DNA of 64,000 nt from a virus (Duplodnaviria; Heunggongvirae; Uroviricota; Caudoviricetes): the IMG/VR virus record IMGVR_UViG_3300042991_000725, positions 59,632-123,631 of that record. One strand, 5' to 3'. Under the pieces are notes generated by a model. That model had not been told where the DNA came from and ran no database searches. It saw nothing but the letters and a program-made list of their open reading frames with translations. The position numbers were made by a program, and so were the translations under genes. The stretch's first letter is position 1. The number at the start of each line of letters is the position of its first letter. This document shows, one piece after another, positions 3,288 to 39,153 of the stretch.

Positions 3288-3914
3288 CTAGTGGTTAGAA
3301 ATATGAATATGTGAGATTTTATCAAATATTTCTCCACTCTCTAAAACGTTCTCTACTCCCCCATTGTGATCTTCGTAATCTACTACAAATAGATGCTTGC
3401 CCTCAAATTCATGCTTTATTGTGTCGTAATATTTTTCTGCTGCCTGTTTGATTAAATCAGCACGATGTTGATGCATTTGTTCTCTCAACTTTGTTATTGC
3501 TTCCCTGTCTCTTTTGGCCTCTTCGTTCTTATCTACCAAGCCGTCAGTTTCATCTGAATATACCTCCTGCACTTTATATTTTGCCATAAACTTTTTTCGC
3601 ATCTCATCGATATTTTGCCTATCTTTGTCCCCCCAATCAAAATCGGGGCGTCCTTGAAAATAGCCAGAACTAATTTCTTTAATCAAATCAGACCGAACGA
3701 TTTTTCTCATTTTACCGCCGCACAAATCTTCCCACAACCGATCAGTGATTTCGTCTATATGAGCAACTTCACCATAATGTACAATATGCTCAATCCCACA
3801 ACGTTTTCCAAAAAACAGATTTTTTAATTCTTCACGAGTCTTTGGAACTTTATCAAACCCTAGTATAAACGAACTACTGCTTGAATTGGCGACAAAACCA
3901 GTCCTAATTTTCAT
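3288..3914 (-). CDS. hypothetical protein (paralog of 43893..44354)
   Basis: 208 aa. N-terminus MKIRTGFVANSSSSSFIL is near-identical to MKIRAGFVANSSSASFIL of the ORF at 43893..44354. Confidence 0.5.
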   Translation of the reverse strand: MKIRTGFVANSSSSSFILGFDKVPKTREELKNLFFGKRCGIEHIVHYGEVAHIDEITDRLWEDLCGGKMRKIVRSDLIKEISSGYFQGRPDFDWGDKDRQNIDEMRKKFMAKYKVQEVYSDETDGLVDKNEEAKRDREAITKLREQMHQHRADLIKQAAEKYYDTIKHEFEGKHLFVVDYEDHNGGVENVLESGEIFDKISHIHISNH

Positions 3915-4561: not shown

Positions 4562-5311
4562 TCAATCTTTCCAAAATAAAATGCCATGCCAACTTCGTCT
4601 GTCAAATGCATCGGTCAATTGCTGAGCCTCTACCCAAGTAGTTGCACCCTCTATCGCTTTAACATGCTTGAGTTCGTGCTTTTTAATAAACCACCATAAA
4701 AATGGGCGGATATGCAAATATTCAATCTTGGCATAACATCCATCATTATCGTAATAAAAATTCAAATAACCAAACCAATGATTAGACAATCTGCTAATTC
4801 GATTGATCTTGCCCACTTCCCATATCCAACACTTATCTATAATATTTATTTTAACTTCCATCGGTGTCCTCCTGTTTCCATACTTTTTTAACTGTTCTGC
4901 CAAACTTTCACATTCTCTTTCTATATAATCGTTGTCGTATGGCCCCGTCTTGTCTCCGTAGTGGTAGCAATCAAATCCCAAGACCCACAAGCCTTCAGCC
5001 TCCTTCACCTTGTCAGTATAATCGGAATATGTTATTGAACCATGGACATCAAACAATAAATCAATTCTTGTATTTTCTAAACTATCTGCACATATACAGG
5101 ATATAATCCCACGCTTGCCCACAGACGTATCATCCTCTAATGTAATTCCACTATTGTCTGAATATTTTTTCCCATAAAATGGATGATTTTTAGGAATGGC
5201 CACATAACCACAGCCCCAACCCGCCATATACTCGTAGTCAGAGCATCGGTTAATAAACGCAATGTAGCCAGCCTTTGTAGTCCAAACTTTTTCAGTTTTC
5301 CATTCACTCAT
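4562..5311 (-). CDS. hypothetical protein
   Basis: 249-aa ORF, Trp/Tyr-rich, no recognised motif. Confidence 0.5.
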   Translation of the reverse strand: MSEWKTEKVWTTKAGYIAFINRCSDYEYMAGWGCGYVAIPKNHPFYGKKYSDNSGITLEDDTSVGKRGIISCICADSLENTRIDLLFDVHGSITYSDYTDKVKEAEGLWVLGFDCYHYGDKTGPYDNDYIERECESLAEQLKKYGNRRTPMEVKINIIDKCWIWEVGKINRISRLSNHWFGYLNFYYDNDGCYAKIEYLHIRPFLWWFIKKHELKHVKAIEGATTWVEAQQLTDAFDRRSWHGILFWKD

Positions 5312-5561
5312 GGCTATTTATCCAAAAAGTAAAAAACAATCTTTGCTGTACAGTGTCCTATACAAACAACAAAATAAACATATATCATTCCCCAAAACAA
5401 ATCAAGCATATCTTCACAAAATGTTGCTTTCATAAAACCCTCCATCCGTTGTTTATGGTAGGCGGCCAACGAGTCGAACGTTGTGTACGAAATTATAAGT
5501 TTCGCCCTCAAAACCGTCGAGGACACCGCCTGTATTTAAATATTTATTCCTTGCAGACTTC

Positions 5562-5759
5562 TTAATCTCGTTCACATTTTTCACAATGATTTTCTAATCT
5601 GACTTCCTCTAATTTCTTCGTTAACGATTCAATCTCCTTTTTAAGCCTGAAAACTTCTCGGCCATTTGCATTAGCGCAACACACTTTGCATTCTGTGTCA
5701 CCATTTTTATGGCAACTACAGACGCAAGTAAAATTAGGATTTAAATCTTTGTCACTCAT
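5562..5759 (-). CDS. small Cys-rich protein
   Basis: 65 aa; CVCSCHKNGDTECKVCC cluster followed by a coiled-coil-like tail. Confidence 0.35.
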   Translation of the reverse strand: MSDKDLNPNFTCVCSCHKNGDTECKVCCANANGREVFRLKKEIESLTKKLEEVRLENHCEKCERD

Positions 5760-5904
5760 TTCCCGGCCTCCTCAATTTTTTGTACAATATTTTCTGCTAA
5801 TCTTAACACCGCATTCTCGCCGCCGTACCATTTATAGCCATCAGACAATCTATCTTCGTGGTCGTTGATTATATCTACTATCATTTTAACCATTTTTTCG
5901 TAAC

Positions 5905-6609
5905 TCATTTTTTTATCCTTTCATAACACTGCTTGCAGTTCAAACACGCAAGTTTATGGTCAATTTCCTCCACATCACACTGACAGAATTTTCCACTTTG
6001 CTTATATTTTTCAATTGCATTCTTTCTCTTATCTACATTGAAAATAATGTCGTAAGTTCCTTTGATTAGTGGCGAATCGAATTCTTCGTTCTTGTCCAAC
6101 GTATAAACCAATTTACTGTTTTTGTTATAAATTCTGAATTCTTTGTGCCAAGCATCTGCTTTTATCTCTTTATCAAAAGAAAGATTAATAAATACATTTG
6201 GATTCTTAATCAGCCTTTTAAGGTCATGCCGATATTTTTTGATGGTCAATGCTTTGCTAATTATTCCAAACTTTATAAAATAAAATCGGCTAAAAACCTT
6301 TTGTGCAATATCAAAATAATCATGAATATAGTCACCAAACGCGAAGCACCTTACATTATCCACACATTTTATAGCAATCTGATTTAAATCTTTTACCAAA
6401 CAATCATGATATTCATCTGGATGTTCAAGAAGAAGTTTGAAATTACGATCCAACTTTTTCTTGACCGATTTATGTATAGCCAGAATTTTTTTATTATAGC
6501 AATATTTGCAATCTTTAATACAACTTCCCAAAGTCCCCGGGGTCGCATCAAAAATAGAGACAAATGTTTTGAAATTATTCATCGCAACTTTCAGTTTTAG
6601 GTCGTGCAT
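5905..6609 (-). CDS. hypothetical protein with CxxxCxxC motif (possible radical SAM/4Fe-4S)
   Basis: 234 aa; GSCIKDCKYCY near the N-terminus fits CX3CX2C; additional C-terminal Cys pairs (CQCD, CLNCKQC). Confidence 0.4.
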   Translation of the reverse strand: MHDLKLKVAMNNFKTFVSIFDATPGTLGSCIKDCKYCYNKKILAIHKSVKKKLDRNFKLLLEHPDEYHDCLVKDLNQIAIKCVDNVRCFAFGDYIHDYFDIAQKVFSRFYFIKFGIISKALTIKKYRHDLKRLIKNPNVFINLSFDKEIKADAWHKEFRIYNKNSKLVYTLDKNEEFDSPLIKGTYDIIFNVDKRKNAIEKYKQSGKFCQCDVEEIDHKLACLNCKQCYERIKK

Positions 6610-7208
6610 AATGTCCTCTTAACAATATCATATGCCGATGGTTCTTGCAATACCATGATGATGTTCCTATGTGCTATAAGTATACGATGCAGATAGATAA
6701 AGTCAAGCGATTTTTCGGAAAAACATATTGAGGTAACTAGTTGTGGATACCGGGTTAGCAACCATGTTGTTTGATCGTACCCTATTGTGTTGACCTGTAT
6801 CGCCATCCTAATGGCGTACTTCAAGCACACAGAAATATTTGGGATACGATGAGGGGCAAAAACAGTTTCTACAGAAAAGTTCACATGATTGCGTAAGTAC
6901 CCCGCAATTTTGTCTTCTTGTTTGCAAAATCGCTTTCCATTATCTCCGCCTCTTACAGCCTTGACAATGATAGGAATGCCAAATGTATCAAGAAAATCAT
7001 ACGGAGTCACAAAACAGTTGTTTAAGCAATTGCGCGAACTTAACAAAAGATGCGGAATGCATATGCATGATATTTTTTTCTTCACAATATCTTCACGCTG
7101 TAGTTTTGTGTTTATGCTTGTTATTTCTAAACATGCCTGCCTGTCGGCAACTCTAGATGAATCGAATGTATTATCAAAGTGCTTATAGCACAGGAGAGTT
7201 GAGTCCAT
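6597..7208 (-). CDS. hypothetical protein
   Basis: 203-aa ORF. Confidence 0.45.
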   Translation of the reverse strand: MDSTLLCYKHFDNTFDSSRVADRQACLEITSINTKLQREDIVKKKISCICIPHLLLSSRNCLNNCFVTPYDFLDTFGIPIIVKAVRGGDNGKRFCKQEDKIAGYLRNHVNFSVETVFAPHRIPNISVCLKYAIRMAIQVNTIGYDQTTWLLTRYPQLVTSICFSEKSLDFIYLHRILIAHRNIIMVLQEPSAYDIVKRTLCTT

Positions 7209-8802: not shown

Positions 8803-9042
8803 TCAGATATTGTATTCATTCCTTTCATAATTTGCTATAGTTTCCATTTCCTTGTTGCCATTCGCCAAAATCTGTCTGCATATCGGACATTTATACAGAA
8901 CATTTGGAGTATTGCTTCCCACCAAAATATTTTTGCTATCCGCAATCTGTACAAATTCCGATGACGTTTTTATAACAAAATTAATCTCGTTTTTGCATCC
9001 GAAGCATATCATGCAAACCCCTCCATTAAAAACATCCTCCAC
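8803..9042 (-). CDS. zinc-ribbon protein
   Basis: 79 aa; CMICFGC...CPIC. Confidence 0.4.
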   Translation of the reverse strand: MEDVFNGGVCMICFGCKNEINFVIKTSSEFVQIADSKNILVGSNTPNVLYKCPICRQILANGNKEMETIANYERNEYNI

Positions 9043-9085
9043 AACAACCTGAATCTACATGTTTTAGGTTATTTGTCCGTTCTCC

Positions 9086-10069
9086 TTAGTTCGCAATAGC
9101 CATCGCCAAATCTAACGCCTTTGTCTTCACACCAATGCTTGGACCGTACCAAATGCGTTTAATCCTATTATTTTGCCTGAATTCATTCGTCTTTCCCCTT
9201 GTCGGCTTGAAATGATCTTCGTATTCTGCAACAGCTTGGAATGCGGCATATGTCGTCCCCTGCATTCCAGGCAAACGATTTGTGGAACTATTGAAAATTG
9301 TCTCTACGGAATTGCGGATATTTTCGGTGCGCGTATTTTTCCCCGCTTCCTTATTGTCTGGATAAATAGATTCCAGATAAGTTTTAAGTTCTCCAGAATT
9401 GATCTGCTTGCGGACAAGAACCTTCATTTGTTCCTCAAATAACTTATAATAATTCACGGTAATCCCAAGAATATGTCGAGACTGATCAATCTTCCCCTTG
9501 ATGCTCTTTGTATGTCGCACATTAATAGAATTTCCTATGTGATTCATTGCAATATTCAAGGTATTCTGACAGACAACACGCGTCGGCGTAAAACCAACGC
9601 AAACTGAACAGCTTCCATTATGGCTTGTTGAAAGCAACAGATATTTATTTATTTCATCGTTAGGAACAGCAGTTATTGGACTTCCAGAAAGTTTTGCCAT
9701 GATCCAAACACGACAACCGCGTTCCAATGCGCCTGCCGTTTCATAAATTGCCTGACCTTCTCCGACAACTCCATCAAAAAAATCAAAAGCTTCGAAGTTC
9801 TGCAAAATTGTATAATCATTTCCGACAACACCAAGAGCTTCATTTACGTCCGTGCGCACTGTTGCAAAAACATTTGGAATCGTAGTCCTTTCATCATCCT
9901 TCATAAAGGAAATATCACGTTTTTCCACAAGCCAATTAAGATGAGCTTTTTCAATAGCGTCTTGGGCCGTTAAGCATCCATCTACAACCTGGCCTAATTT
10001 GTGCCAAGGGATTTCCCGCACCGAAAACATAGACGCTACACCATTTCTGACATCAATATTCGCAGACAT
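9086..10069 (-). CDS. DUF932/TIGR03299-like phage/plasmid protein
   Basis: 327 aa; N-terminal MFSVREIPWHKLGQ matches my recollection of the DUF932 family start motif. Confidence 0.45.
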   Translation of the reverse strand: MSANIDVRNGVASMFSVREIPWHKLGQVVDGCLTAQDAIEKAHLNWLVEKRDISFMKDDERTTIPNVFATVRTDVNEALGVVGNDYTILQNFEAFDFFDGVVGEGQAIYETAGALERGCRVWIMAKLSGSPITAVPNDEINKYLLLSTSHNGSCSVCVGFTPTRVVCQNTLNIAMNHIGNSINVRHTKSIKGKIDQSRHILGITVNYYKLFEEQMKVLVRKQINSGELKTYLESIYPDNKEAGKNTRTENIRNSVETIFNSSTNRLPGMQGTTYAAFQAVAEYEDHFKPTRGKTNEFRQNNRIKRIWYGPSIGVKTKALDLAMAIAN

Positions 10070-10279
10070 TTACAATTCCTTTCAAAAGTTCAATTCTCAA
10101 TTTCCACAATTTTTGGACGCTGACAATCAGTCGCTTCCATTTCCGCTTCTAATATAGTATCAAAAACCTTCACATTTCCAGTATCTTCATCCATTACAGG
10201 AAAAGTATCTTCTGCATCTGGCCAAGTTTCTAGAACAATAAAGACCATTAGTTTCCCTCCGAAGATAAAACTACAGACA

Positions 10280-11056
10280 TTACCCGAAGATACTTAGGTT
10301 TTGTGAATTTCCCATATGCGGGGATATAGGCATAGAAAAAGTCTTGTTTTGAGCCACAACCGTTTTTGGCTTTTCCTGTAATATGGCCATACATCTCCTT
10401 TCAAAAAATATCGGTTCTATAAAAGAATAATTGTTTTGAATATTAATCTCGTGTTGCGTACCCAAAACGCTCGCCCACTTATTCTTACCGACACACTTTA
10501 GCAAAGAAATAACCTTTCCGTCCTGAGTTTTTATTGGAAAATACAGCTTAATGCATTTTCCTTTTGTCGGCTTTCTCCAAATCTCTCCTTCCTCTATTTT
10601 TGCATCGCTTTCTACGATCCATTCGTGTATGCCAGCTCCTGTTTGATAAGTATGCCTTTTTACTTGAGATAAAAAATTATTTGCAGACCTGCTATAACTC
10701 AAAACAGGCCATTCGCCAATAGACAAAAGCTTCAAAAATAAATTGTTTTCTGCCCTTCTGTAAGCTTTAGTCTTAAGGCAAAAGAGAACTGGCCGACTTG
10801 CTTCCGACAAGCAGACATGATAGAAAAATGCATCGTTTGTTTTAGTGCAATGCAGATCTCGATCAATTTTATTTAATATGTTGGCTTTACAAATGCTTGG
10901 AAATAAACCTGTATATCCTCCCAACTCTTCTTCTACTATCATGTCCGTACAATATTGCGTAAGTAACTTCTTTAAATCATAGTCTGGACTGCTTCTATTG
11001 ACAGTCAAGAAAAAACCATGTGTTGCGCGTTCTTTTATGGTCATGGCATACCTCAA
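10280..11056 (-). CDS. hypothetical protein
   Basis: 258 aa; last gene of the operon 14130->10280; overlaps upstream gene by 4 nt. Confidence 0.5.
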   Translation of the reverse strand: MRYAMTIKERATHGFFLTVNRSSPDYDLKKLLTQYCTDMIVEEELGGYTGLFPSICKANILNKIDRDLHCTKTNDAFFYHVCLSEASRPVLFCLKTKAYRRAENNLFLKLLSIGEWPVLSYSRSANNFLSQVKRHTYQTGAGIHEWIVESDAKIEEGEIWRKPTKGKCIKLYFPIKTQDGKVISLLKCVGKNKWASVLGTQHEINIQNNYSFIEPIFFERRCMAILQEKPKTVVAQNKTFSMPISPHMGNSQNLSIFG

Positions 11057-11982
11057 ATAACAGGTTTAAATTGAGGAATAGCTCCAGTTTCTTCAGACAA
11101 TTCGGCATTTGCTTCGTCGTGTTCAACTTGACTATAAATTTTTCTCTCGTTTTCAGCAGACTCAATTTCCATAAGCCACTCTTTTTCCTCCTCGGTCAAT
11201 CCGGCATATTCATCATCTTCTGCGTCAATATCGGCCAAATCTTTTGAGAAATTGCGTGTATCTTTTGGATCATTTTTTGGATTGTCCCAATAACCATCAT
11301 ATTCATATGTCCCATTTTTCTTGAAATAACTTGCAGCATAATCGTAATCGCGAAACGGATAGACGCCAGAATAATCACCATAACTCCAAGCCTTTGTTTT
11401 GTACCCATCGTTAGAATAAAAAATTCCCTCATCTTCAATCCAATTACCGACTTTGTAAATAAACTTTGAAGTGAAAATAATTACCTTGCTTCTGCTTTCC
11501 TTTATAAAAAGCTCGATAAACTTTCTGGCTGAAGCGTACTTGGCCTCATCCTTTATCACATTGCTCAAAACATTTTTACAGAAAATCATGGTGTCTGACA
11601 CTTCGTTCTTTCTATCATTGAAAATTCCGAAGATTCCGTTATGCATAAGAAGATAGTCGTATGAACCAGACAATTTTTCCATTGTATCAAAGCGATTTGT
11701 TATTGGAAAAGGATGGGTGTGCTTCTCATTCGTCTTCCCGCTTGTTCCAATCCGTGCATGAAATGCGAACGCCGTACTTTTCATATCAACCTTTTCGCTA
11801 ATTCTTTTAATTGCACCAATTACTCCCTCTTTTGTTCTAAATCCCTTTTCAAAATAAATGCGCCCCTTCAAATAATACATGAAACCCGCACCGTCTCGAT
11901 TCGAACTCATCATATTTTCTACCTGCTTTTCCCAATCTTTGGGCATTTCTTTCTCAGACGGCTTGTACATAATTACGCACAT
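11053..11982 (-). CDS. class-II glutamine amidotransferase-like (Ntn-hydrolase, Cys2 nucleophile) protein
   Basis: Begins MCVIMYK (Cys directly after initiator Met); AFHARIGTSGKTNEKHTHPFPI fits the GATase-II HxRxxTxG...N.HPF motif; LMHNGIFGIF fits HNGxI. Confidence 0.5.
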   Translation of the reverse strand: MCVIMYKPSEKEMPKDWEKQVENMMSSNRDGAGFMYYLKGRIYFEKGFRTKEGVIGAIKRISEKVDMKSTAFAFHARIGTSGKTNEKHTHPFPITNRFDTMEKLSGSYDYLLMHNGIFGIFNDRKNEVSDTMIFCKNVLSNVIKDEAKYASARKFIELFIKESRSKVIIFTSKFIYKVGNWIEDEGIFYSNDGYKTKAWSYGDYSGVYPFRDYDYAASYFKKNGTYEYDGYWDNPKNDPKDTRNFSKDLADIDAEDDEYAGLTEEEKEWLMEIESAENERKIYSQVEHDEANAELSEETGAIPQFKPVI

Positions 11983-12881
11983 TACAGACCCCTTCCAGTA
12001 AAATAACTATTTAGTTCAACAAACTGTTGTTTGAAACAAAAATCCTTAAAAGTCTCCCATTTTGCCTCCGCAATTTTGTAAACATTATTGCTCATTACAA
12101 ATTTTCTCATGCAATGAATCAATTGAAGTGAAGCAATAAAATCGAAATGGTTCATTGTTCCCTTAAAAATTCTGAATTCGACCGTGCCTCTATTGGCAAT
12201 ATTTATGCAAATATACCTATCAATACATCTATTCTTAATGAGCTTCAAATCATAACGAGCAATTGCGCGTTTGCAATAAGAAAGTAAAGTTGGCTTGCGC
12301 CGAGAGAAAACAATCATTTGTTTCCAGAATTTTTGCATCAACCATACAAGTTTCAGAATATTTAATTGCTTGCCAGGTTCCGCACCTCCAAGAGATTCCG
12401 TCCCAAGATGAATATGTAATCCACACGTATTTTCTGCCGAACATCCTGCGTCGATTGTCAAATATTCAAAAATTTCCTTCCAATTAAATTCTTTATGAAA
12501 AGATAATGACGCTGGATTGCTTACCATTTCCATCCCGTTTCTAAGACTTCCATCATTCTTGAAGAAAATGAAATCGTGATATGCACTCAAAGATATAATA
12601 TTCTTCCTTATTTCTTTTTTCATCGAGTCATTTTCACATTCGAACTCTATTTCAACACCAAAAAATTCTTTATTTCTGACGAAACTGCGCTCTAATGGCT
12701 CTTTTCCAGTTTTAAAAAAGTAAAGGTCCAATTTTTTGTAATTATGCGGGAATAACTGAACAAAAAACTCGAAACAACCGCTGCATAAGCAAGTCCCATT
12801 CCTTAGTTTATACAACAGAGGGCTGTTTCCGCAAGAGCATGTTCCACCAAAGTCCTCGTTTTGGTAAAAAATCCTGTTCAT
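11982..12881 (-). CDS. amidoligase-like protein (Pfam Amidoligase_2-like, glutamine-synthetase-like fold)
   Basis: 299 aa; FGVEIEFE, CGLHIHLG, TVEFRIFKGT motifs shared with the paralog 12898..14130; the amidoligase assignment is from motif recall, not verified. Confidence 0.4.
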   Translation of the reverse strand: MNRIFYQNEDFGGTCSCGNSPLLYKLRNGTCLCSGCFEFFVQLFPHNYKKLDLYFFKTGKEPLERSFVRNKEFFGVEIEFECENDSMKKEIRKNIISLSAYHDFIFFKNDGSLRNGMEMVSNPASLSFHKEFNWKEIFEYLTIDAGCSAENTCGLHIHLGTESLGGAEPGKQLNILKLVWLMQKFWKQMIVFSRRKPTLLSYCKRAIARYDLKLIKNRCIDRYICINIANRGTVEFRIFKGTMNHFDFIASLQLIHCMRKFVMSNNVYKIAEAKWETFKDFCFKQQFVELNSYFTGRGL

Positions 12882-12897
12882 ATTCCCTCCAGCGGAT

Positions 12898-14130
12898 TTA
12901 TATTTTCTTTTCGCTAAATGGCGGCAACAGTCTTTTTTCGTCTAAATATTTGAATAGCATTTTAAATTCATATTTTGCCGCAAACTTCAAATAATCCTGC
13001 CATTGCATCTTGCTGATTTTCTTAACCGGAGTGGCTCTGACAAAATGACAAAAGGTGTGAACAAATTCCAATGTGGCTATTAGCGTAGAATATCTCAGTG
13101 TTCCATTAAAGATTCTGAATTCGGATGTTCTGCTCGGTGTTATATTAATACAGAAAAACTTCCCGTATTCACTACACTTATTTTTTACTTTTTGCAGATT
13201 GGTTATTGAATCATAACGGCGACAAAAGGTGTCAATCTGGCCGCTTTTTCGTCTGGAGAATTTTACAATTTCTGGCCAAAATTTTTGTGCCATCAAAATT
13301 AATTTCAAATCAGATATATCTTGGCCGCCACTATTCTTAGCAAAAAAGTCCTTGTTCACATGAACATGGAGGCCACAATTCCCTGCGTCATGGGACGTGC
13401 ATCCATTTTTTTCCAAATATGAAACAATCTCCTCCCAGCAAAAAAACTTGTGAAAATTTAATGTTCCCGGGTGAGACACGGCCTCAATTCCACAGCGAAG
13501 GCTCTCGTCTTCTTTGTAATACAAAAAATCGCTATCTTTTCTTTTCATCCAATCTACAATAGAGTGTCGGTCTCCATCCACTTCAAATTCCAATTCGACG
13601 CCAAGAAACAATTTTCTCGCAACGCCAAAATCTTCTTTGGTCTCTTTAAAGTTTGGGCTTGGCTTGTAATCGTGATTAAAGAGGGAGGAGCATTCTTCGG
13701 ACGCATCTGCACAATTATTGCAAAGGCAAGAGTTAGAACTAGAACAATCATCATTATGATAAGTTTCTCTGCAAGAATCGCAAACAAAATAGTCGTTTTC
13801 ATAACAATAATCACAAAGAAGTTTAGATCCATGAAAGCAAGCGTATTCGCTAATTCTGTCACTATCAAAAGAAATCTGACCACAATTCTCGCAAGTGATG
13901 GCTTTTTCTTTTGCACAAGCCGTGCAGGCTAAATTGCCATCACTATCTTTTTCAAGTTCGCTCATTGGGAATAATTCAGAACACAAAAAACATTGTATCA
14001 AATCATTGTAACACTTTTTGCAGTAAAACTTTCCGTTGGTACTGCCCGTTTCTTCTACGCAAGAAATCTCGTCGCACATAGCACACTGAATACCATGCTC
14101 CTCAATTGTATCGACATTCTGTTCGGCCAT
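12898..14130 (-). CDS. multi-zinc-ribbon + amidoligase-like protein
   Basis: 410 aa; N-terminal ~150 aa holds >10 CxxC pairs; C-terminal half is paralogous to 11982..12881 (LGVELEFE, CGLHVHV, TSEFRIFNGT). Confidence 0.4.
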   Translation of the reverse strand: MAEQNVDTIEEHGIQCAMCDEISCVEETGSTNGKFYCKKCYNDLIQCFLCSELFPMSELEKDSDGNLACTACAKEKAITCENCGQISFDSDRISEYACFHGSKLLCDYCYENDYFVCDSCRETYHNDDCSSSNSCLCNNCADASEECSSLFNHDYKPSPNFKETKEDFGVARKLFLGVELEFEVDGDRHSIVDWMKRKDSDFLYYKEDESLRCGIEAVSHPGTLNFHKFFCWEEIVSYLEKNGCTSHDAGNCGLHVHVNKDFFAKNSGGQDISDLKLILMAQKFWPEIVKFSRRKSGQIDTFCRRYDSITNLQKVKNKCSEYGKFFCINITPSRTSEFRIFNGTLRYSTLIATLEFVHTFCHFVRATPVKKISKMQWQDYLKFAAKYEFKMLFKYLDEKRLLPPFSEKKI

Positions 14131-14302
14131 TTTCTTCTCCTATGAAATATGGGATCTTGTTTATCCAATTAAAATCTTGTAAAGAAGATAATTGGCAGAA
14201 ACTAACAGAACGATTGCATTCAATACAGCAATAAAAAAATCTTTCCATAAAACACAATGATTTGGCTTCAAGGCCGGAGCCCTCCATAAAAAAATGATAA
14301 AA

Positions 14303-14383
14303 TGCCGATGGCGGGAGTCGAACCCGCATGGGAAATCCCGGCGGCTTTTAAGGCCGCTGTGTCTGCCATTCCACCACATCGGC
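14303..14383 (-). tRNA. tRNA-Leu (anticodon UAA)
   Basis: Cloverleaf on minus strand: acceptor GCCGATG/CATCGGC+A, anticodon loop CU-UAA-AA, long variable arm (type II), T-arm GGGTTCGACTCCC. Confidence 0.75.
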
Positions 14384-14811
14384 TAAAACTTTAGTCTTTT
14401 GTCCAAAGCCAAACTATAGAAAAAAAGAAAAGATATATAAATGCTGCCGATTGAACTTGGTAAATATCCTTCAAAACTTCTAAAATTTCTTTATCCACGG
14501 TGGTCCCTCCCTGATCGAGTACTTATACGGTTTTCTCCAATCACGGCTCCTTTATTTCTTCCATTTTAATCAAAACTACACCATAACCCAGCGGAACAGC
14601 GCGCAGTTGCCTGATTATTCCCGCGTATATTACGCGGTCCCTGTCGTTCAGCAAAACTTGCTTCCAATTTTGTGTCGTCATCCTTTGTGTGTACCGCTCT
14701 CCCAACAGACAAAATCCTTGAAGGTCTACGCTCTCGCTCATTTTGCGGTCTCCTTCCCAAGTATAACTGTTTCAATCAGTTCTTCCCATCCGCCGTTTCC
14801 CCGAAATAAAA

Positions 14812-15381
14812 TTAATAGATTAATTCCGTCGCCTTCGTGTGTTGCTCCCAAAGGTCAATGATCATTTTTTTGTGCGTCTTCCACCATGGCAACGTATCTT
14901 TGCACATTGCCGATATTTGCTGGTCCGTAAACGCGAACCACTTCGCGGCATCATGGATTTGGTACCCGATTTGAATATGTTTTTCGGTTATACATATTGG
15001 CCACTTGAGTCCCAAGATTTGAACCGGAGCCTTTTTTATTTCTTCTCCGTACAGGATTGCGCCGTACAGGCTAGCACCGCATAGGTTTGTACAGGAAACG
15101 TCTACACAGGAAAAGTTTGCGCCGTACAAGCTTGCATAAGACAGATTTACGTAAGACAAATTTGCATAGGAAAAATTTGCATAGGAAAGGTTTGCACAGG
15201 AAAAGTTTACACAGGAAAGGTTTCCGCCGTACAGGTTTATGTTGCACAGATTTGTGTAAGACAGATTTGCACCGTACAGGCTTACGCGGGATCTTATCGC
15301 TATTTCGACAGCCTCCTTGACCGATTCCGCATCACACTCGAAAATTACCAAATCAAGGTGATTGAATATCTGGATATTCAT
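14812..15381 (-). CDS. pentapeptide-repeat protein
   Basis: Start at internal ATG 15381 with GGAGG SD; ~20 consecutive A(N/D)LSx pentapeptides (ANLSYTNLCNINLYGGNLSCVNFSCANLSYANFSYANLSYVNLSYASLYGANFSC...). Confidence 0.7.
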   Translation of the reverse strand: MNIQIFNHLDLVIFECDAESVKEAVEIAIRSRVSLYGANLSYTNLCNINLYGGNLSCVNFSCANLSYANFSYANLSYVNLSYASLYGANFSCVDVSCTNLCGASLYGAILYGEEIKKAPVQILGLKWPICITEKHIQIGYQIHDAAKWFAFTDQQISAMCKDTLPWWKTHKKMIIDLWEQHTKATELIY

Positions 15382-15647
15382 TTTCCGGCCTCCTTCCACT
15401 GGCCTATCAGTCTCTGGCCAAATGCCCATAGAATTTCAATTTTTCCATCTTCTTCTAAAAGCTGCATTGCGTCGGCATAGGACGAGAGGCCGTTGGAATC
15501 CAATTTGCCTTTGCAAAAACACGCCTGATTTATTGTCCCGATCAGTGCCTCCTGATACTTTTCCAGTTCCGATTTGAGCCGGGAAATCTCGTTTTCCAAA
15601 TCAGAAACACACCGACAATCATTCACAGATTCACATATTTCGATCAT
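15378..15647 (-). CDS. hypothetical coiled-coil protein
   Basis: 89 aa; overlaps downstream gene by 4 nt. Confidence 0.4.
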   Translation of the reverse strand: MIEICESVNDCRCVSDLENEISRLKSELEKYQEALIGTINQACFCKGKLDSNGLSSYADAMQLLEEDGKIEILWAFGQRLIGQWKEAGK

Positions 15648-19715: not shown

Positions 19716-19788
19716 TGACGGCGGAGGGAATTGAACCCTCGACCCCCGGATTAAAAATCCGATGTTCTGCCAACTGAACTACGCCGTC
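19716..19788 (-). tRNA. tRNA-Lys (anticodon UUU)
   Basis: Minus-strand cloverleaf: acceptor GACGGCG/CGCCGTC+A, anticodon loop UU-UUU-AA, T-arm GGGTTCAATTCCC. Confidence 0.75.
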
Positions 19789-33021: not shown

Positions 33022-34230
33022 ATGAAGTATTATAATGGAAATGACGCACTTGTAATAAAAAGTTGGTGCAATAATCCAGAAGATTCGGCCCTTGATCAAG
33101 CCAAGAATTTAGCCAAATTGCCGTTTGCTTATGGCAGTATTTGTTTGATGCCAGATACACATGCTGGTTACGGAATGCCCATAGGTGGAGTTCTCGCCAC
33201 CAAAGATGTTGTAATTCCTAATGCTGTTGGGGTAGATGTGGGATGTGGAATGTGTGTAGCAAAAACAAATTTACATGATTTATCAACGGATACTATCAAA
33301 CGTATTGTGGGAGAAATTAGAAAGGTTGTTCCGCTTGGATTTAACCATCACAAAGAGCCTCAACCAAAATCGCTGATGCCAGAAGGAGACTTGTATTATC
33401 AAGAATACTACAATAATTATTTTGATAAAATGTTTATTTGTGAAAGAAATCATGACAAGGCAAGAGAGTCTCTTGGAACGCTGGGCGGAGGCAATCATTT
33501 TATTGAGATACAAAAAGACAGCAGAGGGATTGTATGGATTATGATTCATTCTGGATCTCGTAATTTAGGCAAACAGGTTGCCGATCATTACAATAGGTTG
33601 GCGATAGAATTAAATGAATCATATTATAGCAATGTTCCAAAAGAATGGCAATTGGCTTTTTTGCCTATAAATTTTGAAGAAGGCGAAAAATATATACAGG
33701 AAATGGATTATTGCGTCAAGTACGCCAAGGCTAATAGAAAGTTGATGATGACAAGAATAATGCAGTGTTTTGTTGATATTATTCCTGATTGCTTATTTTC
33801 TTCTATTGACGGGAACACTGTTCTTGATGTTGTTCATAATTATGCTAGAATGGAAAATCATTTCGGACACAATTTAATGGTTCATCGAAAAGGTGCTACT
33901 TCTGCAAGAAAAGACGAATATGGGATTATACCGGGATCACAAGGGACTGCGAGCTATATAGTCAAGGGGCTTGGCAATCCAGATAGTTTCATGTCTTGTT
34001 CCCATGGCGCTGGCCGTAAAATGGGCAGGAAAGAAGCCAAGCGAACCCTTAATTTGGATTCAGAAAAGAAGAAGCTTGACGATTTGGGAATTGTCCACGG
34101 CATACGCAGCGTTGACGATTTAGAAGAGGCTTGTAGTGCATATAAAGATATTGATGTGGTTATGGAAGAGCAAAAAGATCTTGTGGAAATCGTTGAGCGT
34201 CTTAAACCTCTTGGCCTTATTAAGGGATAA
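33022..34230 (+). CDS. rtcB: RNA-splicing ligase RtcB (3'-phosphate/5'-OH RNA ligase)
   Basis: 402 aa; CLMPDTHAGYGMPIGGV, GGGNHFIEIQ, IHSGSRNLGKQ and CSHGAGRKM match the RtcB metal/GTP-binding motifs. Confidence 0.85.
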   Translation: MKYYNGNDALVIKSWCNNPEDSALDQAKNLAKLPFAYGSICLMPDTHAGYGMPIGGVLATKDVVIPNAVGVDVGCGMCVAKTNLHDLSTDTIKRIVGEIRKVVPLGFNHHKEPQPKSLMPEGDLYYQEYYNNYFDKMFICERNHDKARESLGTLGGGNHFIEIQKDSRGIVWIMIHSGSRNLGKQVADHYNRLAIELNESYYSNVPKEWQLAFLPINFEEGEKYIQEMDYCVKYAKANRKLMMTRIMQCFVDIIPDCLFSSIDGNTVLDVVHNYARMENHFGHNLMVHRKGATSARKDEYGIIPGSQGTASYIVKGLGNPDSFMSCSHGAGRKMGRKEAKRTLNLDSEKKKLDDLGIVHGIRSVDDLEEACSAYKDIDVVMEEQKDLVEIVERLKPLGLIKG

Positions 34231-34600: not shown

Positions 34601-35422
34601 TTGATGGTTATGGAGAATCCAAATAGCTTATCCACCAAATGTGTTTTCCGAGACGATGAATCTGGCATTTGGCTTTATCAGACCAATTGCATTGAATTTA
34701 TGGATATACTTGCTGCTAAATTCCCTGAAGGCAAGTTCGATATGATTTTTGCCGATCCGCCATATTTTTTATCTAACGGAGGGTTTACCTGCCACACGGG
34801 GAAGATGGTGGCGGTCAATAAGGGGGAATGGGATAAATCCAATGGACCGGAGATGAATCATAAATTTAATATGGAGTGGCTTTCAAGGTGCCAGAATGTT
34901 CTAAAACCAAATGGAACCTTATGGGTGTCTGGGACACACCATGTGATCCATTCTGTAGGTCATGCCATGCAACAACTGGGGATGAAAATCCTTAATAACA
35001 TTACTTGGTTGAAACCAAATCCGCCTCCGAACCTTTCTTGCCGCTATTTTACTCATTCTACGGAAACAATAATCTGGGCTGCGAAAACAGAAAAATCAAA
35101 GCATTGTTTCAATTATGGAGAAATGCGTGAAAGCAATAATGGCAAACAGATGAAATCCGTATGGTCTTTCTCTGTGCCTAACAAAAAGGAAAAGGAATTT
35201 GGGAAACATCCTACTCAAAAGCCGATTGCTCTCTTAGAAAGAATTATCCTATCATCAACGAGTGAAGGCAATTTAATCTTTGATCCTTTTGCAGGCAGTT
35301 CTACTACTGGTGTATCAGCAATACAAACACATCGTAAATTTGTAGGGACGGAACTTAAAACAGAATTTATCAATCTGTCTATTGCTCGATTAAAACATGC
35401 GATAGGTATCCGCGAAAGATAA
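34601..35422 (+). CDS. DNA N6-adenine/N4-cytosine methyltransferase (beta-class amino-MTase)
   Basis: DMIFADPPY (motif IV) precedes the C-terminal FDPFAGSSTTG (motif I), the beta-class order. Confidence 0.8.
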   Translation: MMVMENPNSLSTKCVFRDDESGIWLYQTNCIEFMDILAAKFPEGKFDMIFADPPYFLSNGGFTCHTGKMVAVNKGEWDKSNGPEMNHKFNMEWLSRCQNVLKPNGTLWVSGTHHVIHSVGHAMQQLGMKILNNITWLKPNPPPNLSCRYFTHSTETIIWAAKTEKSKHCFNYGEMRESNNGKQMKSVWSFSVPNKKEKEFGKHPTQKPIALLERIILSSTSEGNLIFDPFAGSSTTGVSAIQTHRKFVGTELKTEFINLSIARLKHAIGIRER

Positions 35423-35514
35423 CGCAATACCCAGGGATCAAGCATGATAATGCAGAACCACGACCCGTAGCTAATCAATGGATGTTACGACGATAGTAAA
35501 AGGAATGATTCATC

Positions 35515-36189
35515 ATGAACACTGGAAAAGGCAAGTCTATAATAACGAATTTTGGATGTGATAAGTCGTGTCATTATTGTATTTGGAAATATTCACAACT
35601 GAGGAATTACAAAACTACAATAGACAATACAGACTGGGAAAAGCTATCGAAGTTCATAAAGGGCTCGGATAGCATAAGTATTTCTGGTGGCGGCGACCCT
35701 CTTTATAATATTGACGGAAATTGGGCATGGTTCAAGGAGTTCTTTACCAGGGCTAAATCCTATCATGTCAAACTTCACACCGCAGTTATTTTGCCACAAG
35801 ACAAAAGTTTTTATTATGGTAGCTTTAATAAGATTGCACTGCATCTGAATTATAAAGAATTCAAACACAATCTTGACAGGGTTTTTTCTCTACATGAGAA
35901 TATTAGGCTAGTTTTCGTATTGTCGGAGAACGATTTGTCCAAGAACAGGGTAAGTGAGATATGCGAAATATGTGCTGATAAGTCTGTTCAGTTAAGTTTT
36001 AGAGAATTGTTTATCCCTGATAAGACAAAGTCTAGATTGCAGAGTGTGCTTGAAATTAATACGAAGGAAATAGTTAAGAGCAAATACAGTTCTTTCGCCA
36101 AATTTGTCGAACAGGCCGACTATAATATTTATTATATGCCAGACAATTCTATAAGAACAAAATTTTTGGAGAATGCCCATGCAATTTAA
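35515..36189 (+). CDS. QueE-like radical SAM protein (7-carboxy-7-deazaguanine synthase family, B. subtilis type)
   Basis: 224 aa; FGCDKSCHYC (cf. QueE GCDYSCSWC) and ISISGGGDPL (cf. VTISGGNP SAM-binding loop). Confidence 0.5.
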   Translation: MNTGKGKSIITNFGCDKSCHYCIWKYSQLRNYKTTIDNTDWEKLSKFIKGSDSISISGGGDPLYNIDGNWAWFKEFFTRAKSYHVKLHTAVILPQDKSFYYGSFNKIALHLNYKEFKHNLDRVFSLHENIRLVFVLSENDLSKNRVSEICEICADKSVQLSFRELFIPDKTKSRLQSVLEINTKEIVKSKYSSFAKFVEQADYNIYYMPDNSIRTKFLENAHAI

Positions 36190-37165
36190 GAATGCTTTTT
36201 ATCTCCCAAGCGGTAGGGTATTTTTGCTTGATTGTGACGGATTTCCTGTTGAATGTACAGAAATGAGAGATGTTACTGTCGGTGGGAAGGACCATGAAGA
36301 AGTACGAACATCTAACGACCCGCATGTGATTTGGAATCACTTAAAGCCATATAATGAAAAATGGCTGCTTACAGTATCTACGCAGAAGGGCTGCCCACAT
36401 AAATGCAAGTTTTGTGATGTCGCAGGGCTTGGCTTTAGCGGCAATTTAACTGTTGAACAAATCTTGGAGCAAGTTTCTTTCATCCTGGATGCTTCTCCGT
36501 ATGTGCAAAATTGCTCTAAAGTCAAAATAGGATTTGCTAGAATGGGAGAGCCGTCACATAATTTGACAAATGTTCTTAATGCCATGAAGATGCTACCATC
36601 AATCTCTTCTAGCAAAAGTAGAGTTTTCACATGGCTGCCATGCTTTAATAGTATTCTGCCCAAGAAAACAATAGATGGACGGTCAGCATACGATGTGATA
36701 GAAAGAGTTTTAGCTATGAAGGATTGGTATAATGGATTCCTCCACTTCCAAATCTCGGCAAATTCTACAGACGAGAATATTAGGAAGCAGCTTTTCGGTG
36801 GTGCCGATGTCTTGGGCTTGGAAGAAATTGTCAAATATATCAATGGAAAGTCGATTACTAATAGGACAATTACGCTGAATTTTATAGTAATAGATGGAGT
36901 CCCTATTGATGTAAAATATCTAAAGAGTATTGGCGTTAATGGCAGCAAATTTAACATTAAGCTGATCCCATTAAACAATACGGAGCGCGGGATCATCAAT
37001 AACTTGAAGACATATGCCAATTATACCAATTATGATAAACTGATTGATTTGGGAGATGAAATACGGAAGGAAGGCATTCCTGTTGTCGTAGATGCTATAG
37101 CAAAATGTGAAGAGGCCGGGTTATGTTGCGGACAGTTGGCTCATATATATGCGAAAAATAATTAA
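36173..37165 (+). CDS. RlmN/Cfr-family radical SAM RNA methyltransferase
   Basis: STQKGCPHKCKFCDVAGLGFSGNLTVEQILEQV parallels RlmN [33 protein letters not shown]; C-terminal CCGQLA parallels the RlmN ACGQLAG (second catalytic Cys). Confidence 0.7.
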   Translation: MPMQFKNAFYLPSGRVFLLDCDGFPVECTEMRDVTVGGKDHEEVRTSNDPHVIWNHLKPYNEKWLLTVSTQKGCPHKCKFCDVAGLGFSGNLTVEQILEQVSFILDASPYVQNCSKVKIGFARMGEPSHNLTNVLNAMKMLPSISSSKSRVFTWLPCFNSILPKKTIDGRSAYDVIERVLAMKDWYNGFLHFQISANSTDENIRKQLFGGADVLGLEEIVKYINGKSITNRTITLNFIVIDGVPIDVKYLKSIGVNGSKFNIKLIPLNNTERGIINNLKTYANYTNYDKLIDLGDEIRKEGIPVVVDAIAKCEEAGLCCGQLAHIYAKNN

Positions 37166-37428: not shown

Positions 37429-37504
37429 TCTGGGGTAGCTCAGCTGGTAGAGCGACGGACTGTTAATCCGTTTGTCGCAGGTTCAAATCCTGCTCCCAGA
37501 GCCA
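37429..37504 (+). tRNA. tRNA-Asn (GUU)
   Basis: Acceptor TCTGGGG/TCCCAGA, anticodon loop CU-GUU-AA, T-arm GGTTCAAATCC, CCA encoded. Confidence 0.8.
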
Positions 37505-37511
37505 AAATTAT

Positions 37512-37583
37512 CAGGGTGTGGGCCAATGGCTGGCCACCAGTCTTGGGCACTGGGTCATGCAGGTTCGACTCCTGTCACCCTGA
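37512..37583 (+). tRNA. tRNA-Pro (UGG)
   Basis: Acceptor CAGGGTG/CACCCTG, anticodon stem CCAGT/ACTGG, loop CU-UGG-GC. Confidence 0.75.
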
Positions 37584-37595
37584 TTTAATATGTGC

Positions 37596-37666
37596 GTCCC
37601 TGTGATCTAATGGCAGGATACCAGATTTTCAGTCTGGGTGCAAGGGTTCGATCCCCTTCAGGGATA
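37596..37666 (+). tRNA. tRNA-Glu (UUC)
   Basis: Acceptor GTCCCTG/CAGGGAT, anticodon loop UU-UUC-AG; D-arm TCTAATGGCAGGA homologous to bacterial tRNA-Glu. Confidence 0.75.
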
Positions 37667-37684
37667 TTTGTTCTTTGAAAATGT

Positions 37685-37758
37685 AGCCCATTAACTCAAC
37701 TGGCTAGAGTGCCACTTTTACACGGTGGAAGTTGAAGGCTCGAATCCTTCATGGGCTA
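37685..37758 (+). tRNA. tRNA-Val (UAC)
   Basis: Acceptor AGCCCAT/ATGGGCT, anticodon loop UU-UAC-AC, T-arm GAAGGCTCGAATCCTTC. Confidence 0.7.
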
Positions 37759-37764
37759 TTTAAT

Positions 37765-37838
37765 GCTCGGTTAGTGTAGTGACAACACGCGACACTGTCG
37801 ATGTCGAGTCAGGAGTTTAATTCTCCTACCGAGTGCCA
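37765..37838 (+). tRNA. tRNA-Asp (GUC)
   Basis: Anticodon stem CGACA/TGTCG, loop CU-GUC-GA; CCA encoded. Confidence 0.8.
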
Positions 37839-37865
37839 TTTTTTTCGGGCTATGTGCCCACCAAT

Positions 37866-37936
37866 GGGGACATAACATAATGGGAATGTGTTACCCTTGC
37901 AAGGTAAAAATGTGGTTTCGACTACCACTGTCTCCA
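37866..37936 (+). tRNA. tRNA-Ala (UGC)
   Basis: Acceptor GGGGACA/TGTCTCC with G3:U70 identity pair; anticodon loop CU-UGC-AA. Confidence 0.8.
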
Positions 37937-37985
37937 TTATCTTTTATTTTTTGCTCTTTGACAATATTGCTGTAAAACGTAACAC

Positions 37986-38073
37986 AGAAGCGTAGCCTAA
38001 CGGTAAGGCAGCACTTTGCTAAAGTGCCATGCGTCCACAAGGCGTATTGAGAGTTCAATTCTCTCCGCTTCTG
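37986..38073 (+). tRNA. tRNA-Ser (GCU)
   Basis: Type II; acceptor AGAAGCG/CGCTTCT+G, anticodon loop UU-GCU-AA, long variable arm. Confidence 0.8.
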
Positions 38074-38095
38074 CTTTATAAAACTAGGAGCCCAT

Positions 38096-38815
38096 ATGCA
38101 AACTAATACAATGAAGTGCGAATATGGATGTGGGAATAACGCTTTATACAAGTTGCCTAAAGGCAGATGGTGTTGTTCGACGAGCTTTAATTCGTGTCCT
38201 GCTTCCAGAGAAAAAAACAGAATAGCCGTTCTCGATAGCTATAAAAATGGAAGATCTGGTTATTGGAAAGGCAAAAGTTATCCAAGTTTTGGCAAAAAAT
38301 ATGAAGAAATGTACGGCAAGGACAGGTCTGAAATAATCAAAGATAAAATATCAAAGTCTTTGATTGGCGTTTCTCCGGGCAGAGCAAGTACGGACGAGAA
38401 AGAACAAATAAGAAGATCTCGCATTTCTGCAAAAATGATTCTTAATAAATGTGGCGGGTATAGGTACGGTAGCGGCAGAGGTAAAAAGGGAACATATAAG
38501 GGGTATTGGTGTGATAGTAGTTGGGAGCTAGCCTATGTTATTTATTGTTTAGATCATAGTATCAAAATAAGTAGAAATTGGACAAGGTTTCCTTATGTTT
38601 ATAAAGGCAAGCAGCGTTTTTGGATTCCAGACTTTGTTAAAGAAGATACCTATATCGAGATTAAAGGATATGAGACAAAAAAGGATGAAGCAAAATTCAA
38701 TTATTTTAAAAAGAGCTTGATTATTCTTAAAGAAAAAGAAATGCGTTTTATACTAAGTTATGTTACTGATAAATACGGAAAGGACTATATTTCAATGTAC
38801 GAAAGGAAGAGTTGA
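38096..38815 (+). CDS. zinc-finger + PD-(D/E)xK nuclease domain protein (putative homing endonuclease inside the tRNA array)
   Basis: 239 aa; AGGAG SD; N-terminal CEYGCG...CCSTSFNSC zinc cluster; C-terminal WCDSSWE...PDFVKEDTYIEIKG (D...E-x-K); stop overlaps the 5' end of tRNA-Ser(UGA) by 11 nt. Confidence 0.5.
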   Translation: MQTNTMKCEYGCGNNALYKLPKGRWCCSTSFNSCPASREKNRIAVLDSYKNGRSGYWKGKSYPSFGKKYEEMYGKDRSEIIKDKISKSLIGVSPGRASTDEKEQIRRSRISAKMILNKCGGYRYGSGRGKKGTYKGYWCDSSWELAYVIYCLDHSIKISRNWTRFPYVYKGKQRFWIPDFVKEDTYIEIKGYETKKDEAKFNYFKKSLIILKEKEMRFILSYVTDKYGKDYISMYERKS

Positions 38816-38896
38816 CCACAGTGGGTGCGTGGCCTTGTCTTGAAAACAAGTGCCCATGAAAGTGGGCTGAGAGTTCAAATCTCTCCTCTTCCTCCA
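38805..38896 (+). tRNA. tRNA-Ser (UGA)
   Basis: Type II; acceptor GGAAGAG/CTCTTCC, anticodon stem CTTGT/ACAAG, loop CU-UGA-AA, T-arm GAGAGTTCAAATCTCTC; end taken with encoded CCA. Confidence 0.7.
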
Positions 38897-38898
38897 CT

Positions 38899-38968
38899 GC
38901 CCCGTGGTGTAATTGGAAACGCGCTGGCCTTTGGAGCCGGAGTCTCCCGTTCAAATCGGGACGGGGCA
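38899..38968 (+). tRNA. tRNA-Gln (UUG)
   Basis: Acceptor GCCCCGT/ACGGGGC+A, anticodon loop CU-UUG-GA. Confidence 0.7.
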
Positions 38969-38977
38969 ATTTTATAC

Positions 38978-39049
38978 TGCCCAGTGGTGTAATAGAAACA
39001 TATCGGACTCTGACTCCGAAGACTTCAGGTGCAAGTCCTGACTGGGCAA
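38978..39049 (+). tRNA. tRNA-Gln (CUG)
   Basis: Acceptor TGCCCAG/CTGGGCA+A, anticodon stem TCGGA/TCCGA, loop CU-CUG-AC. Confidence 0.7.
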
Positions 39050-39058
39050 TTTTTATTC

Positions 39059-39142: not shown

Positions 39143-39153
39143 TTTTATATTGT

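Follow-up and report, generated by a model that had tools for sequence, protein, structure and literature searches.

The 64,000-nucleotide (nt) stretch of Caudoviricetes DNA analyzed here (the window; IMG/VR record IMGVR_UViG_3300042991_000725, positions 59,632 to 123,631) carries on its minus strand, at 10280-14130, four tightly packed open reading frames (ORFs) in a single orientation. This locus is almost certainly a phage copy of a pairing, conserved on phages, prophages and other mobile elements, between an amidoligase and a class-II glutamine amidotransferase (GATase)-type enzyme, in which the ligase has been duplicated and an orphan gene appended. As a tentative account of its chemistry, to which we give somewhat less than an even chance, we favor a gamma-glutamyl-type ligation onto a target amine, with the cysteine enzyme trimming or reversing the product. 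The genes and domains concerned are:

12898-14130, minus strand: amidoligase paralog 1, 410 amino acids (aa); an N-terminal acidic zinc-ribbon array, then a carboxylate-amine ligase domain of the glutamine synthetase/gamma-glutamylcysteine ligase (GS/GCL) fold
13711-14085, minus strand: zinc-ribbon array of paralog 1 (residues 16-140), with eight CxxC motifs
12931-13623, minus strand: catalytic ligase domain of paralog 1 (about residues 170-400), with residues invariant in 44-48 homologs
11982-12881, minus strand: amidoligase paralog 2, 299 aa; catalytic domain as in paralog 1, with one CxxC and five cysteines remaining of the zinc array
11053-11982, minus strand: stand-alone class-II GATase-type amidohydrolase of the N-terminal nucleophile (Ntn), Cys1 type, 309 aa, beginning MCVIMYK
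11392-11982, minus strand: Ntn domain of the GATase (residues 1-197), AlphaFold2 (AF2) pLDDT >90
11056-11391, minus strand: C-terminal tail of the GATase, acidic, aromatic-rich and predicted to be disordered
10280-11044, minus strand: orphan fourth gene, 254 aa from the ATG at 11044 (10280-11056 and 258 aa in the ORF listing)

The original prediction, made from the sequence of the window and a list of its ORFs, had described four overlapping genes at these coordinates. All four are present, together with every motif quoted for them (GVELEFE/GVEIEFE, CGLHVH/CGLHIH and TSEFRIFNGT/TVEFRIFKGT, and HARIGTSG...HTHPFP and HNG), a set far beyond chance. The overlap itself holds where the stop codon of ligase 2 and the start codon of the GATase share 1 nt (TAATG), with the ribosome-binding site GGAAGGGG preceding the GATase, and translation of the two is coupled in the window. 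It does not hold between the two ligases, which lie 16 nt apart, the GGAGGG ribosome-binding site of ligase 2 falling between them, or ahead of the fourth gene, whose start is most probably the ATG at 11044, 8 nt past the GATase stop and behind a GAGG site; the resulting 254 aa are those of the Joint Genome Institute (JGI) call. The public JGI call for the GATase (P0001, 305 aa) begins at Met5, four codons late, and thereby drops the catalytic Cys2 (11971-11982, minus strand). We take MC as the true start because the aligned homologs, like the ribosome-binding site GGAAGGGG, point to it. Annotation pipelines may mis-start this GATase family systematically.

Both ligase paralogs were predicted to be members of the Amidoligase_2 family, and profile searches bear this out. 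The Pfam model PF12224 scores 25.5 bits for paralog 1 and 35.2 bits for paralog 2 against a gathering cut-off of 22, and both proteins match phrog_16683 (1e-49 and 1e-36) as well as PHROGs 2443 and 7469, annotated 'amidoligase enzyme'. The paralogs are 38% identical, and paralog 1 is the best BLAST match of paralog 2. Across 44-48 aligned homologs of paralog 1 the invariant residues are G177, E179, E181, D208, S210, G214, E216, P221, G253, H255, R293, R294, E337 and R339. Every one of these is retained in the short paralog, so that both ligases look catalytically competent. E179, E181, D208, E216, H255, R293, R294, E337 and R339 would form the metal, ATP and acyl-phosphate site, the assignment of single residues to single ligands being provisional. 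The ligase has the GS/GCL catalytic fold expected of Amidoligase_2. Structure comparison places it closest to YbdK (13.9), followed by gamma-glutamylcysteine ligases (10.8-12.7), glutamine synthetases (about 10-11.8) and Dop/PafA (about 10), with gamma-glutamylmethylamide synthetase and 1-naphthylamine glutamine synthetase also among the closest folds.

What sets paralog 1 apart is the array in front of its catalytic domain. CxxC motifs start at residues 16, 37, 47, 69, 80, 106, 117 and 137, and 21 cysteines fall within residues 1-176, a pattern that would correspond to about four Cys4 units. These cysteines are near-invariant in the alignment of homologs. The array is family-wide, most of the 88 members tabulated having 6-14 CxxC motifs and most commonly eight; the predicted fusion to a zinc-ribbon domain is real, and only its count, given as more than 10 CxxC pairs, has to be lowered to eight motifs. 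The close homologs P0029-31 carry precomputed LIM and DZR domains, which on rescanning of P0029 score 38.8 and 37.2 bits, both above threshold. Paralog 1 of the window is not matched by the Pfam zinc-finger models PF00412 and PF12773, and a profile search of the PDB yields weak LIM matches (E 0.003-0.005). Many of the proteins that match the ligase model in a viral structure library and UniProt are named 'Amidoligase enzyme' or 'LIM domain containing protein'. The arrays are also strongly acidic, with a net charge of -14 in paralog 1, a family median of -22.5, a median isoelectric point (pI) of about 4.1 and 94% of arrays net negative, which weighs against direct nucleic-acid binding and favors a protein or a cationic ligand.

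The protein beginning MCVIMYK is, as had been proposed, class-II GATase-like: structural searches, profile alignment, a PDB profile search and its invariant residues agree, while its Pfam scores stay below threshold (GATase_4, 18.3 bits under a cut-off of 23; none of GATase_2, 4, 6 or 7 reaches its threshold). The PDB profile search returns 1te5, GFAT and PurF; 1te5, which we take to be YafJ-like, is the best sequence-level match, at a marginal E of 0.005. The AF2 model has pLDDT above 90 for residues 1-197, and residues 200-309 are predicted to be disordered. With this model Foldseek retrieves first the glutaminase domains of GFAT-1/GlmS (E 5e-7 to 5e-5, probability 1.0) and then PurF. In 23 aligned homologs M1, H75, R77, H90, P91, P93, H114, N115, G116, D130, S190 and N191 are invariant; Cys2, on whose conservation the assignment depended, is present in 22 of the 23, the lone exception being truncated at its N-terminus, and 44 of the 54 members of the GATase cluster begin with MC despite crude ORF calling.

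Alignment by hhalign to Escherichia coli GlmS (probability 92%) equates Cys2 with Cys1, Arg77 with Arg73 and Asn115-Gly116 with the oxyanion hole Asn98-Gly99. The invariant Asp130, within an SDT motif, lies outside the aligned range and is equated with GlmS Asp123 by position only. In GlmS and PurF the alpha-carboxylate and the alpha-amino group of a glutamyl moiety, both free, are bound by these Arg and Asp residues. Since Arg77 and, by position, Asp130 are kept, the Ntn enzyme should act either on free glutamine or on a gamma-glutamyl amide in terminal position. The enzyme looks competent as a Cys1 Ntn amidohydrolase. It has no fused synthase domain, the ligase being the adjoining, translationally coupled gene.

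Past a conserved YSN motif the GATase tail is acidic and aromatic-rich, as it is in homologs. Near the C-terminus both of the GATase clades described below show a recurring acidic motif, roughly LLxxG[FM]xxxEIEExLY (examples at L006:8240-9016, L025:7032-7967, L031:7098-8021 and L046:7042-7950); a similar stretch of the window GATase, AGLTEEEKEWLMEIE, lies at about 11100-11200 on the minus strand. This motif may serve in docking.

The linkage of the two enzymes extends well beyond the window. A scan of IMG/VR returned at least 578 relatives and GTDB species genomes 236, the best 80 of which supplied the bacterial neighborhoods; the search patterns used on GTDB were biased toward close relatives. 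With crude ORF calling, 65 of 83 viral loci encoding a full-length ligase have the GATase as the very next gene, and once missed GATases are rescued and truncated loci dropped it directly follows the ligase in about 73 of 80 informative loci. It lies downstream of the ligase in about 69 of 73 informative bacterial loci. The conserved unit is two genes, ligase then GATase, and the amidoligase-GATase neighborhood named in the original prediction is thus found in viruses and bacteria alike. The two genes are neighbors in phage contigs bearing terminase, portal or integrase genes, and the best 80 of the GTDB relatives come almost all from gut or rumen Clostridia, for example Oscillospiraceae, Ruminococcus and Agathobaculum. 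A megablast search of 9000-15500 against GenBank phages returned nothing; hence no annotated close phage relative is on record there.

Partner GATases fall into two clades, that of the window (MC[VI]I...) and a more canonical one (MCGLFG...RGTDATG), which passes Pfam GATase_6 at 30.9-54.2 bits against a threshold of 27; close ligase relatives are paired with either. About one locus in ten encodes a second ligase paralog. Several of the paralog pairs are reciprocal best matches within their own genome, which indicates independent duplications, and one of the copies has a reduced zinc array in the window and in L024, L056 and L064. No ligase-GATase fusion occurs among about 160 loci, and some Amidoligase_2 members have no adjoining GATase.

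Four distant homologs of 597-600 aa (P0068, P0071, P0072 and P0073) match ribosomal protein S6; in the two that were rescanned, the match is a complete C-terminal domain above threshold (E 3e-14 to 4e-13). An FtsK/HerA-type ATPase, not a GATase, follows the S6-fused ligase P0071 at L009:7001-8800 and L010:6934-8733. Ribosomal protein S6 is the substrate of RimK, an unrelated glutamate ligase, and as a pointer to the target of the amidoligases these fusions are suggestive only.

Two further settings of the family may be recorded. The Clostridioides phage AR1086-1 (L094), a 130-kb C. difficile phage-plasmid, encodes an amidoligase at 4716-6905 followed not by a GATase but by RlaP, an RNA-repair nucleotidyltransferase, and a gene for the RNA 2'-phosphotransferase KptA (111-722) lies 4 kb from the amidoligase. 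In L006-L008 (the P0049 loci) a close ligase-GATase pair stands beside RHS-repeat toxin, SocA/Panacea, VbhA and GGDEF genes; these loci resemble a bacterial chromosomal island, which indicates that the module is not confined to phages.

The pairing was foreseen. Iyer, Abhiman, Burroughs and Aravind reportedly predicted in 2009 (Mol Biosyst 5:1636), from genomes, that phage amidoligases pair with a GATase-like thiol amidohydrolase. Their predictions are repeated, and the function called unexplored, in PMC10580990, PMC11318856 and PMC3517423. Our literature searches, including defense-related terms, found no experimental study of the Amidoligase_2 family or of the pair. Pairs of this kind, combining PF12224 with a class-II GATase, occur in phiEco32, LUZ24-like phages and phage tf, mycobacteriophage Marvin (gp105-gp106) and the OM43 phages MEP401/402, and share families, gene order and phage location with the window. 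Marvin gp105 and gp106 are a direct homolog pair of the window ligase and GATase; a reading of gp105 as a ligase-GATase fusion was rejected, gp105 being mis-annotated as a GATase. The window differs from these pairs in that its ligase is duplicated, with most of the zinc array lost from one copy, in that its GATase comes from a divergent clade that falls under the Pfam thresholds, and in the appended orphan. The module is a further copy of an already predicted, uncharacterized kind. The locus is set apart only by its duplicated ligase and its orphan fourth gene.

Folds and catalytic residues suggest how such a pair could work. The ligases would spend ATP to turn a carboxylate into an acyl-phosphate, most probably, by analogy with the closest structural relatives, the gamma-carboxylate of free glutamate. 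The activated carboxylate would then be joined to an amine of a target held by the acidic zinc-ribbon array, this target most likely being a protein lysine or another cationic amine rather than a nucleic acid. The Cys1 Ntn enzyme would subsequently hydrolyze the terminal gamma-glutamyl amide, trimming or reversing the product, so that the two enzymes would act as writer and eraser. The second ligase, with its reduced zinc array, might form a heteromer with the first or add a second residue; operon-linked peptide ligases often perform successive ligations (PMC4431377). The module would serve an accessory function in conflicts between host and mobile elements, for example host takeover, counter-defense or exclusion of competitors.

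We prefer gamma-glutamyl chemistry because the nearest structures are YbdK and the gamma-glutamylcysteine ligases, ahead of the glutamine synthetases, and because some members stand without a GATase while another Amidoligase_2 clade pairs with a gamma-glutamyl cyclotransferase (AIG2). Arg77 and, by position, Asp130 also speak for gamma-glutamyl chemistry, given the role of their GlmS/PurF counterparts in binding a glutamyl moiety. A cyclotransferase only cleaves gamma-glutamyl amides and cannot supply ammonia. The Pfam description of PF12224 presumably gives its pairing with the ligase too. The pairing itself is recorded in PMC11318856. A protein or cationic target is favored because the arrays are acidic and because some homologs are fused to S6.

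Ligases and hydrolases encoded side by side have precedents in PuuA/PuuD, PafA/Dop, BtrJ/BtrG and Cap2/Cap3. Closest to the chemistry proposed here are PuuA/PuuD, AtdA1/AtdA2 (aniline) and IpuC/IpuF (isopropylamine), in which a GS-fold ligase is likewise co-encoded with a GATase-type cysteine amidohydrolase for gamma-glutamyl amides. Their hydrolases, however, are class-I (triad) GATase homologs whereas that of the window is an Ntn class-II enzyme, their ligases are true members of the GS family without zinc ribbons, and they belong to catabolic operons with oxidizing enzymes acting between the two steps. PafA and Dop are a writer and an eraser paralogous to each other, accompanied by a Pup tag gene and a proteasome; unlike in that system, neither a tag-like gene nor a conserved C-terminal Gln or Glu was found here. 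A stand-alone Ntn Cys1 domain without a fused synthase is known from EgtC and YafJ-type proteins, and EgtC hydrolyzes a gamma-glutamyl amide without supplying ammonia. The window GATase matches these proteins marginally and has its own acidic, aromatic-rich tail.

Several points weigh against ligation followed by trimming or reversal. A ligase and a hydrolase acting on one bond would run a futile cycle in a two-gene module unless the mark is transient or regulatory, and very tight linkage with translational coupling is equally typical of two subunits of one amidotransferase. The cyclotransferase pairing was seen in a different clade only, and none of the loci examined from the zinc-ribbon clade showed it. 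The homologs fused to S6 are all distant (26-28% identity), and acidic charge is no proof of protein binding.

The alternative that fares best is a two-subunit glutamine-dependent amidotransferase, in which the Ntn enzyme would free ammonia from glutamine and the ligase would phosphorylate a target carboxylate for conversion to an amide, possibly the D-iso-Glu or meso-diaminopimelate of a peptidoglycan precursor, or else a Glu, an Asp or the C-terminus of a protein. We consider this a credible, if doubtful, account. It explains the near-obligatory order of ligase then GATase and their coupling better than a writer and an eraser do, and two genes suffice for a productive net reaction. The complete glutaminase catalytic set is conserved, and many partners (the GAT2 clade) score above threshold for GATase_6, a generic class-II glutamine-amidotransferase model. 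MurT/GatD and AsnB/LtsA are precedents for peptidoglycan amidation that combine ATP-dependent carboxylate activation with a glutaminase, but MurT adopts a Mur-ligase fold and has a class-I GATase, GatD, as its partner, AsnB-type enzymes join a class-II GATase to a PP-loop synthetase, and a GS-fold ligase is found in none of them. To our knowledge, no GS-fold enzyme is fed channeled ammonia by a GATase. Iyer et al. are said to have proposed for phiEco32 that cell-wall amidation could block superinfection. The prediction of cell-wall amidation or superinfection exclusion is also on record in the secondary literature (PMC10580990 and PMC11318856) and counts in favor of an amidotransferase.

An amidotransferase fits less well with the relatives of the pair. 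The cyclotransferase partner of related clades could not deliver ammonia, some members have no GATase at all, and no fusion of ligase and GATase appeared in the roughly 160 loci. Since close ligase relatives pair with either GATase clade, the strict co-evolution expected of an ammonia tunnel is not evident. An acidic multi-zinc-ribbon domain, moreover, has no obvious role in handling a small cytoplasmic peptidoglycan precursor.

The fold comparison, in which small-molecule ligases rank closest, could also be taken to indicate a small-molecule pathway. The ligases would then act in sequence, like gamma-glutamylcysteine ligase and glutathione synthetase, or, in the manner of PuuA, would gamma-glutamylate a free amine, for example a polyamine; a peptide-like metabolite, signal or toxin would result, to be processed or recycled by the Ntn enzyme. 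GS-like ligases work with GATase-like hydrolases in the PuuA/PuuD, aniline and isopropylamine pathways, and polyamines would be attracted by the acidic surfaces. Successive action of linked ligases, described in PMC4431377, would suit such a pathway. The occurrence of two ligases in only about 10% of loci, by independent duplications, argues that a fixed two-step pathway was not the ancestral design. No conserved transporter, tailoring-enzyme or precursor-peptide gene was found in the neighborhoods examined, and enzymes for small molecules seldom carry a conserved array of 3-7 zinc ribbons. We regard this explanation as unlikely.

Modification of nucleic acids, with zinc ribbons binding DNA or tRNA and the enzymes attaching or amidating a base side group (for instance to give a hypermodified thymine of glutamyl type, or to turn Glu-tRNA(Gln) into Gln-tRNA(Gln) as GatCAB does), is very improbable: the 32 tRNAs, RtcB, RNA ligase, three DNA methyltransferases and radical-SAM enzymes of the window, the tRNA-Leu gene directly upstream of the operon, and the RlaP and KptA genes beside and near the ligase of phage AR1086-1 speak for it, but the zinc arrays are strongly acidic, the module resides mostly in small temperate phages and bacterial islands whose neighborhood gene tables, as examined, list no tRNA or base-modification genes, and no hydroxymethylase-, kinase- or glycosylase-like neighbor is conserved. 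Three other leads were rejected. A Pup-like tag does not fit, as GATase C-termini have no conserved terminal residue; for a known anti-phage defense system, PADLOC-DB 2.0 gave no meaningful match and NCBIfam none for any of the four proteins; and CfmP of Klebsiella is an unrelated ATP-grasp enzyme.

If gamma-glutamyl ligation with trimming or reversal does take place, its boldest form would be reversible protein gamma-glutamylation on mobile elements, with the writer and eraser of a new post-translational mark by which phages and other elements of gut Clostridia and Actinobacteria reprogram or disarm host proteins. This form is decidedly unlikely; were it true, the translation apparatus would be one possible target, as hinted by the ligase-S6 fusions. 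Amidoligase-GATase pairs are abundant. Whichever chemistry applies, solving it would explain what a large portion of viral 'dark matter' does, and it could reveal a new protein or metabolite modification in phage-host conflict. The two-gene unit, the family-wide acidic zinc array, the repeated independent duplication of the ligase and the S6 fusions are constraints that narrow the hypotheses. Culturable relatives exist among Marvin-like mycobacteriophages, which we take to be those of cluster S, and C. difficile phage-plasmids.

The fourth gene stands outside this unit. It has no match in Pfam, PHROGs, PADLOC, NCBIfam or a PDB sequence search, no homolog among 5.8 billion clustered proteins or 1.84 billion representatives searched with phmmer, and no counterpart in 94 related loci. 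It is a lineage-specific orphan, probably co-transcribed with the module. As its homologs were found nowhere, it was rejected as a component of the system, and the view of the four genes as one system, implied in the original prediction, has to be given up.

Other neighbors were likewise dismissed as partners: a DUF932 protein (9086-10069) is near the module in only 2 of the 94 loci, GP88 (5905-6609) in none by sequence search, and a pentapeptide-repeat protein (14812-15429, minus strand) in none. In L013 the genes again run ligase, GATase, DUF932, GP88, which points to an accessory region held in common, not a functional link. Apart from ligase and GATase, the only neighbors shared by more than a few loci are serine recombinases, DUF960 and an uncharacterized protein of 220 aa. 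The pentapeptide-repeat protein, just upstream of the module, has a Pfam match at 1.8e-16; its fold includes the DNA mimics Qnr and MfpA. A 208-aa protein of the window (3288-3914, minus strand; phrog_7397) is weakly homologous (E 2.4e-5) to L002:9123-9644, which directly follows the second amidoligase of L002, a locus with two ligase paralogs and a radical-SAM/SPASM gene nearby.

Directly upstream of the ligase operon lies a tRNA-Leu(UAA) gene (14303-14383, minus strand). The ORFs at 14102-14329 and 14161-14379 both overlap it and are almost certainly spurious. The long run of small minus-strand genes makes the label 'phage early-like region' plausible.

The 154-kb source contig looks like a large phage, with 32 tRNA genes, RtcB, an RNA ligase, ribonucleotide reductase, three DNA methyltransferases, radical-SAM enzymes and several proteins known only from PHROGs; no structural genes lie in the 64-kb window. 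All 32 tRNA genes are in the window, 29 of them in a plus-strand array at 37429-41415 and the others at 5456-5531, 14303-14383 and 19716-19788 (minus strand). Together with the two proteins below, they resemble a kit for supplying and repairing tRNAs under attack by anticodon nucleases.

33022-34230: RtcB
829-1863: RNA ligase with a PHA02142 OB domain

Two N6/N4 and one C5 DNA methyltransferase and two radical-SAM proteins are encoded within 34601-37165 (plus strand), 41731-43676 (minus strand) and 46075-47319 (minus strand), with a weak QueE-like match at 35515-36189; all of them may serve DNA modification and have no relation to the amidoligase module. At 53547-63569 on the plus strand, a sugar-nucleotide/glycosyltransferase cluster, which includes a GT2 glycosyltransferase, a UDP-GlcNAc 2-epimerase and a DegT-type aminotransferase, comes after a ribonucleotide reductase bearing a TSCPD domain.

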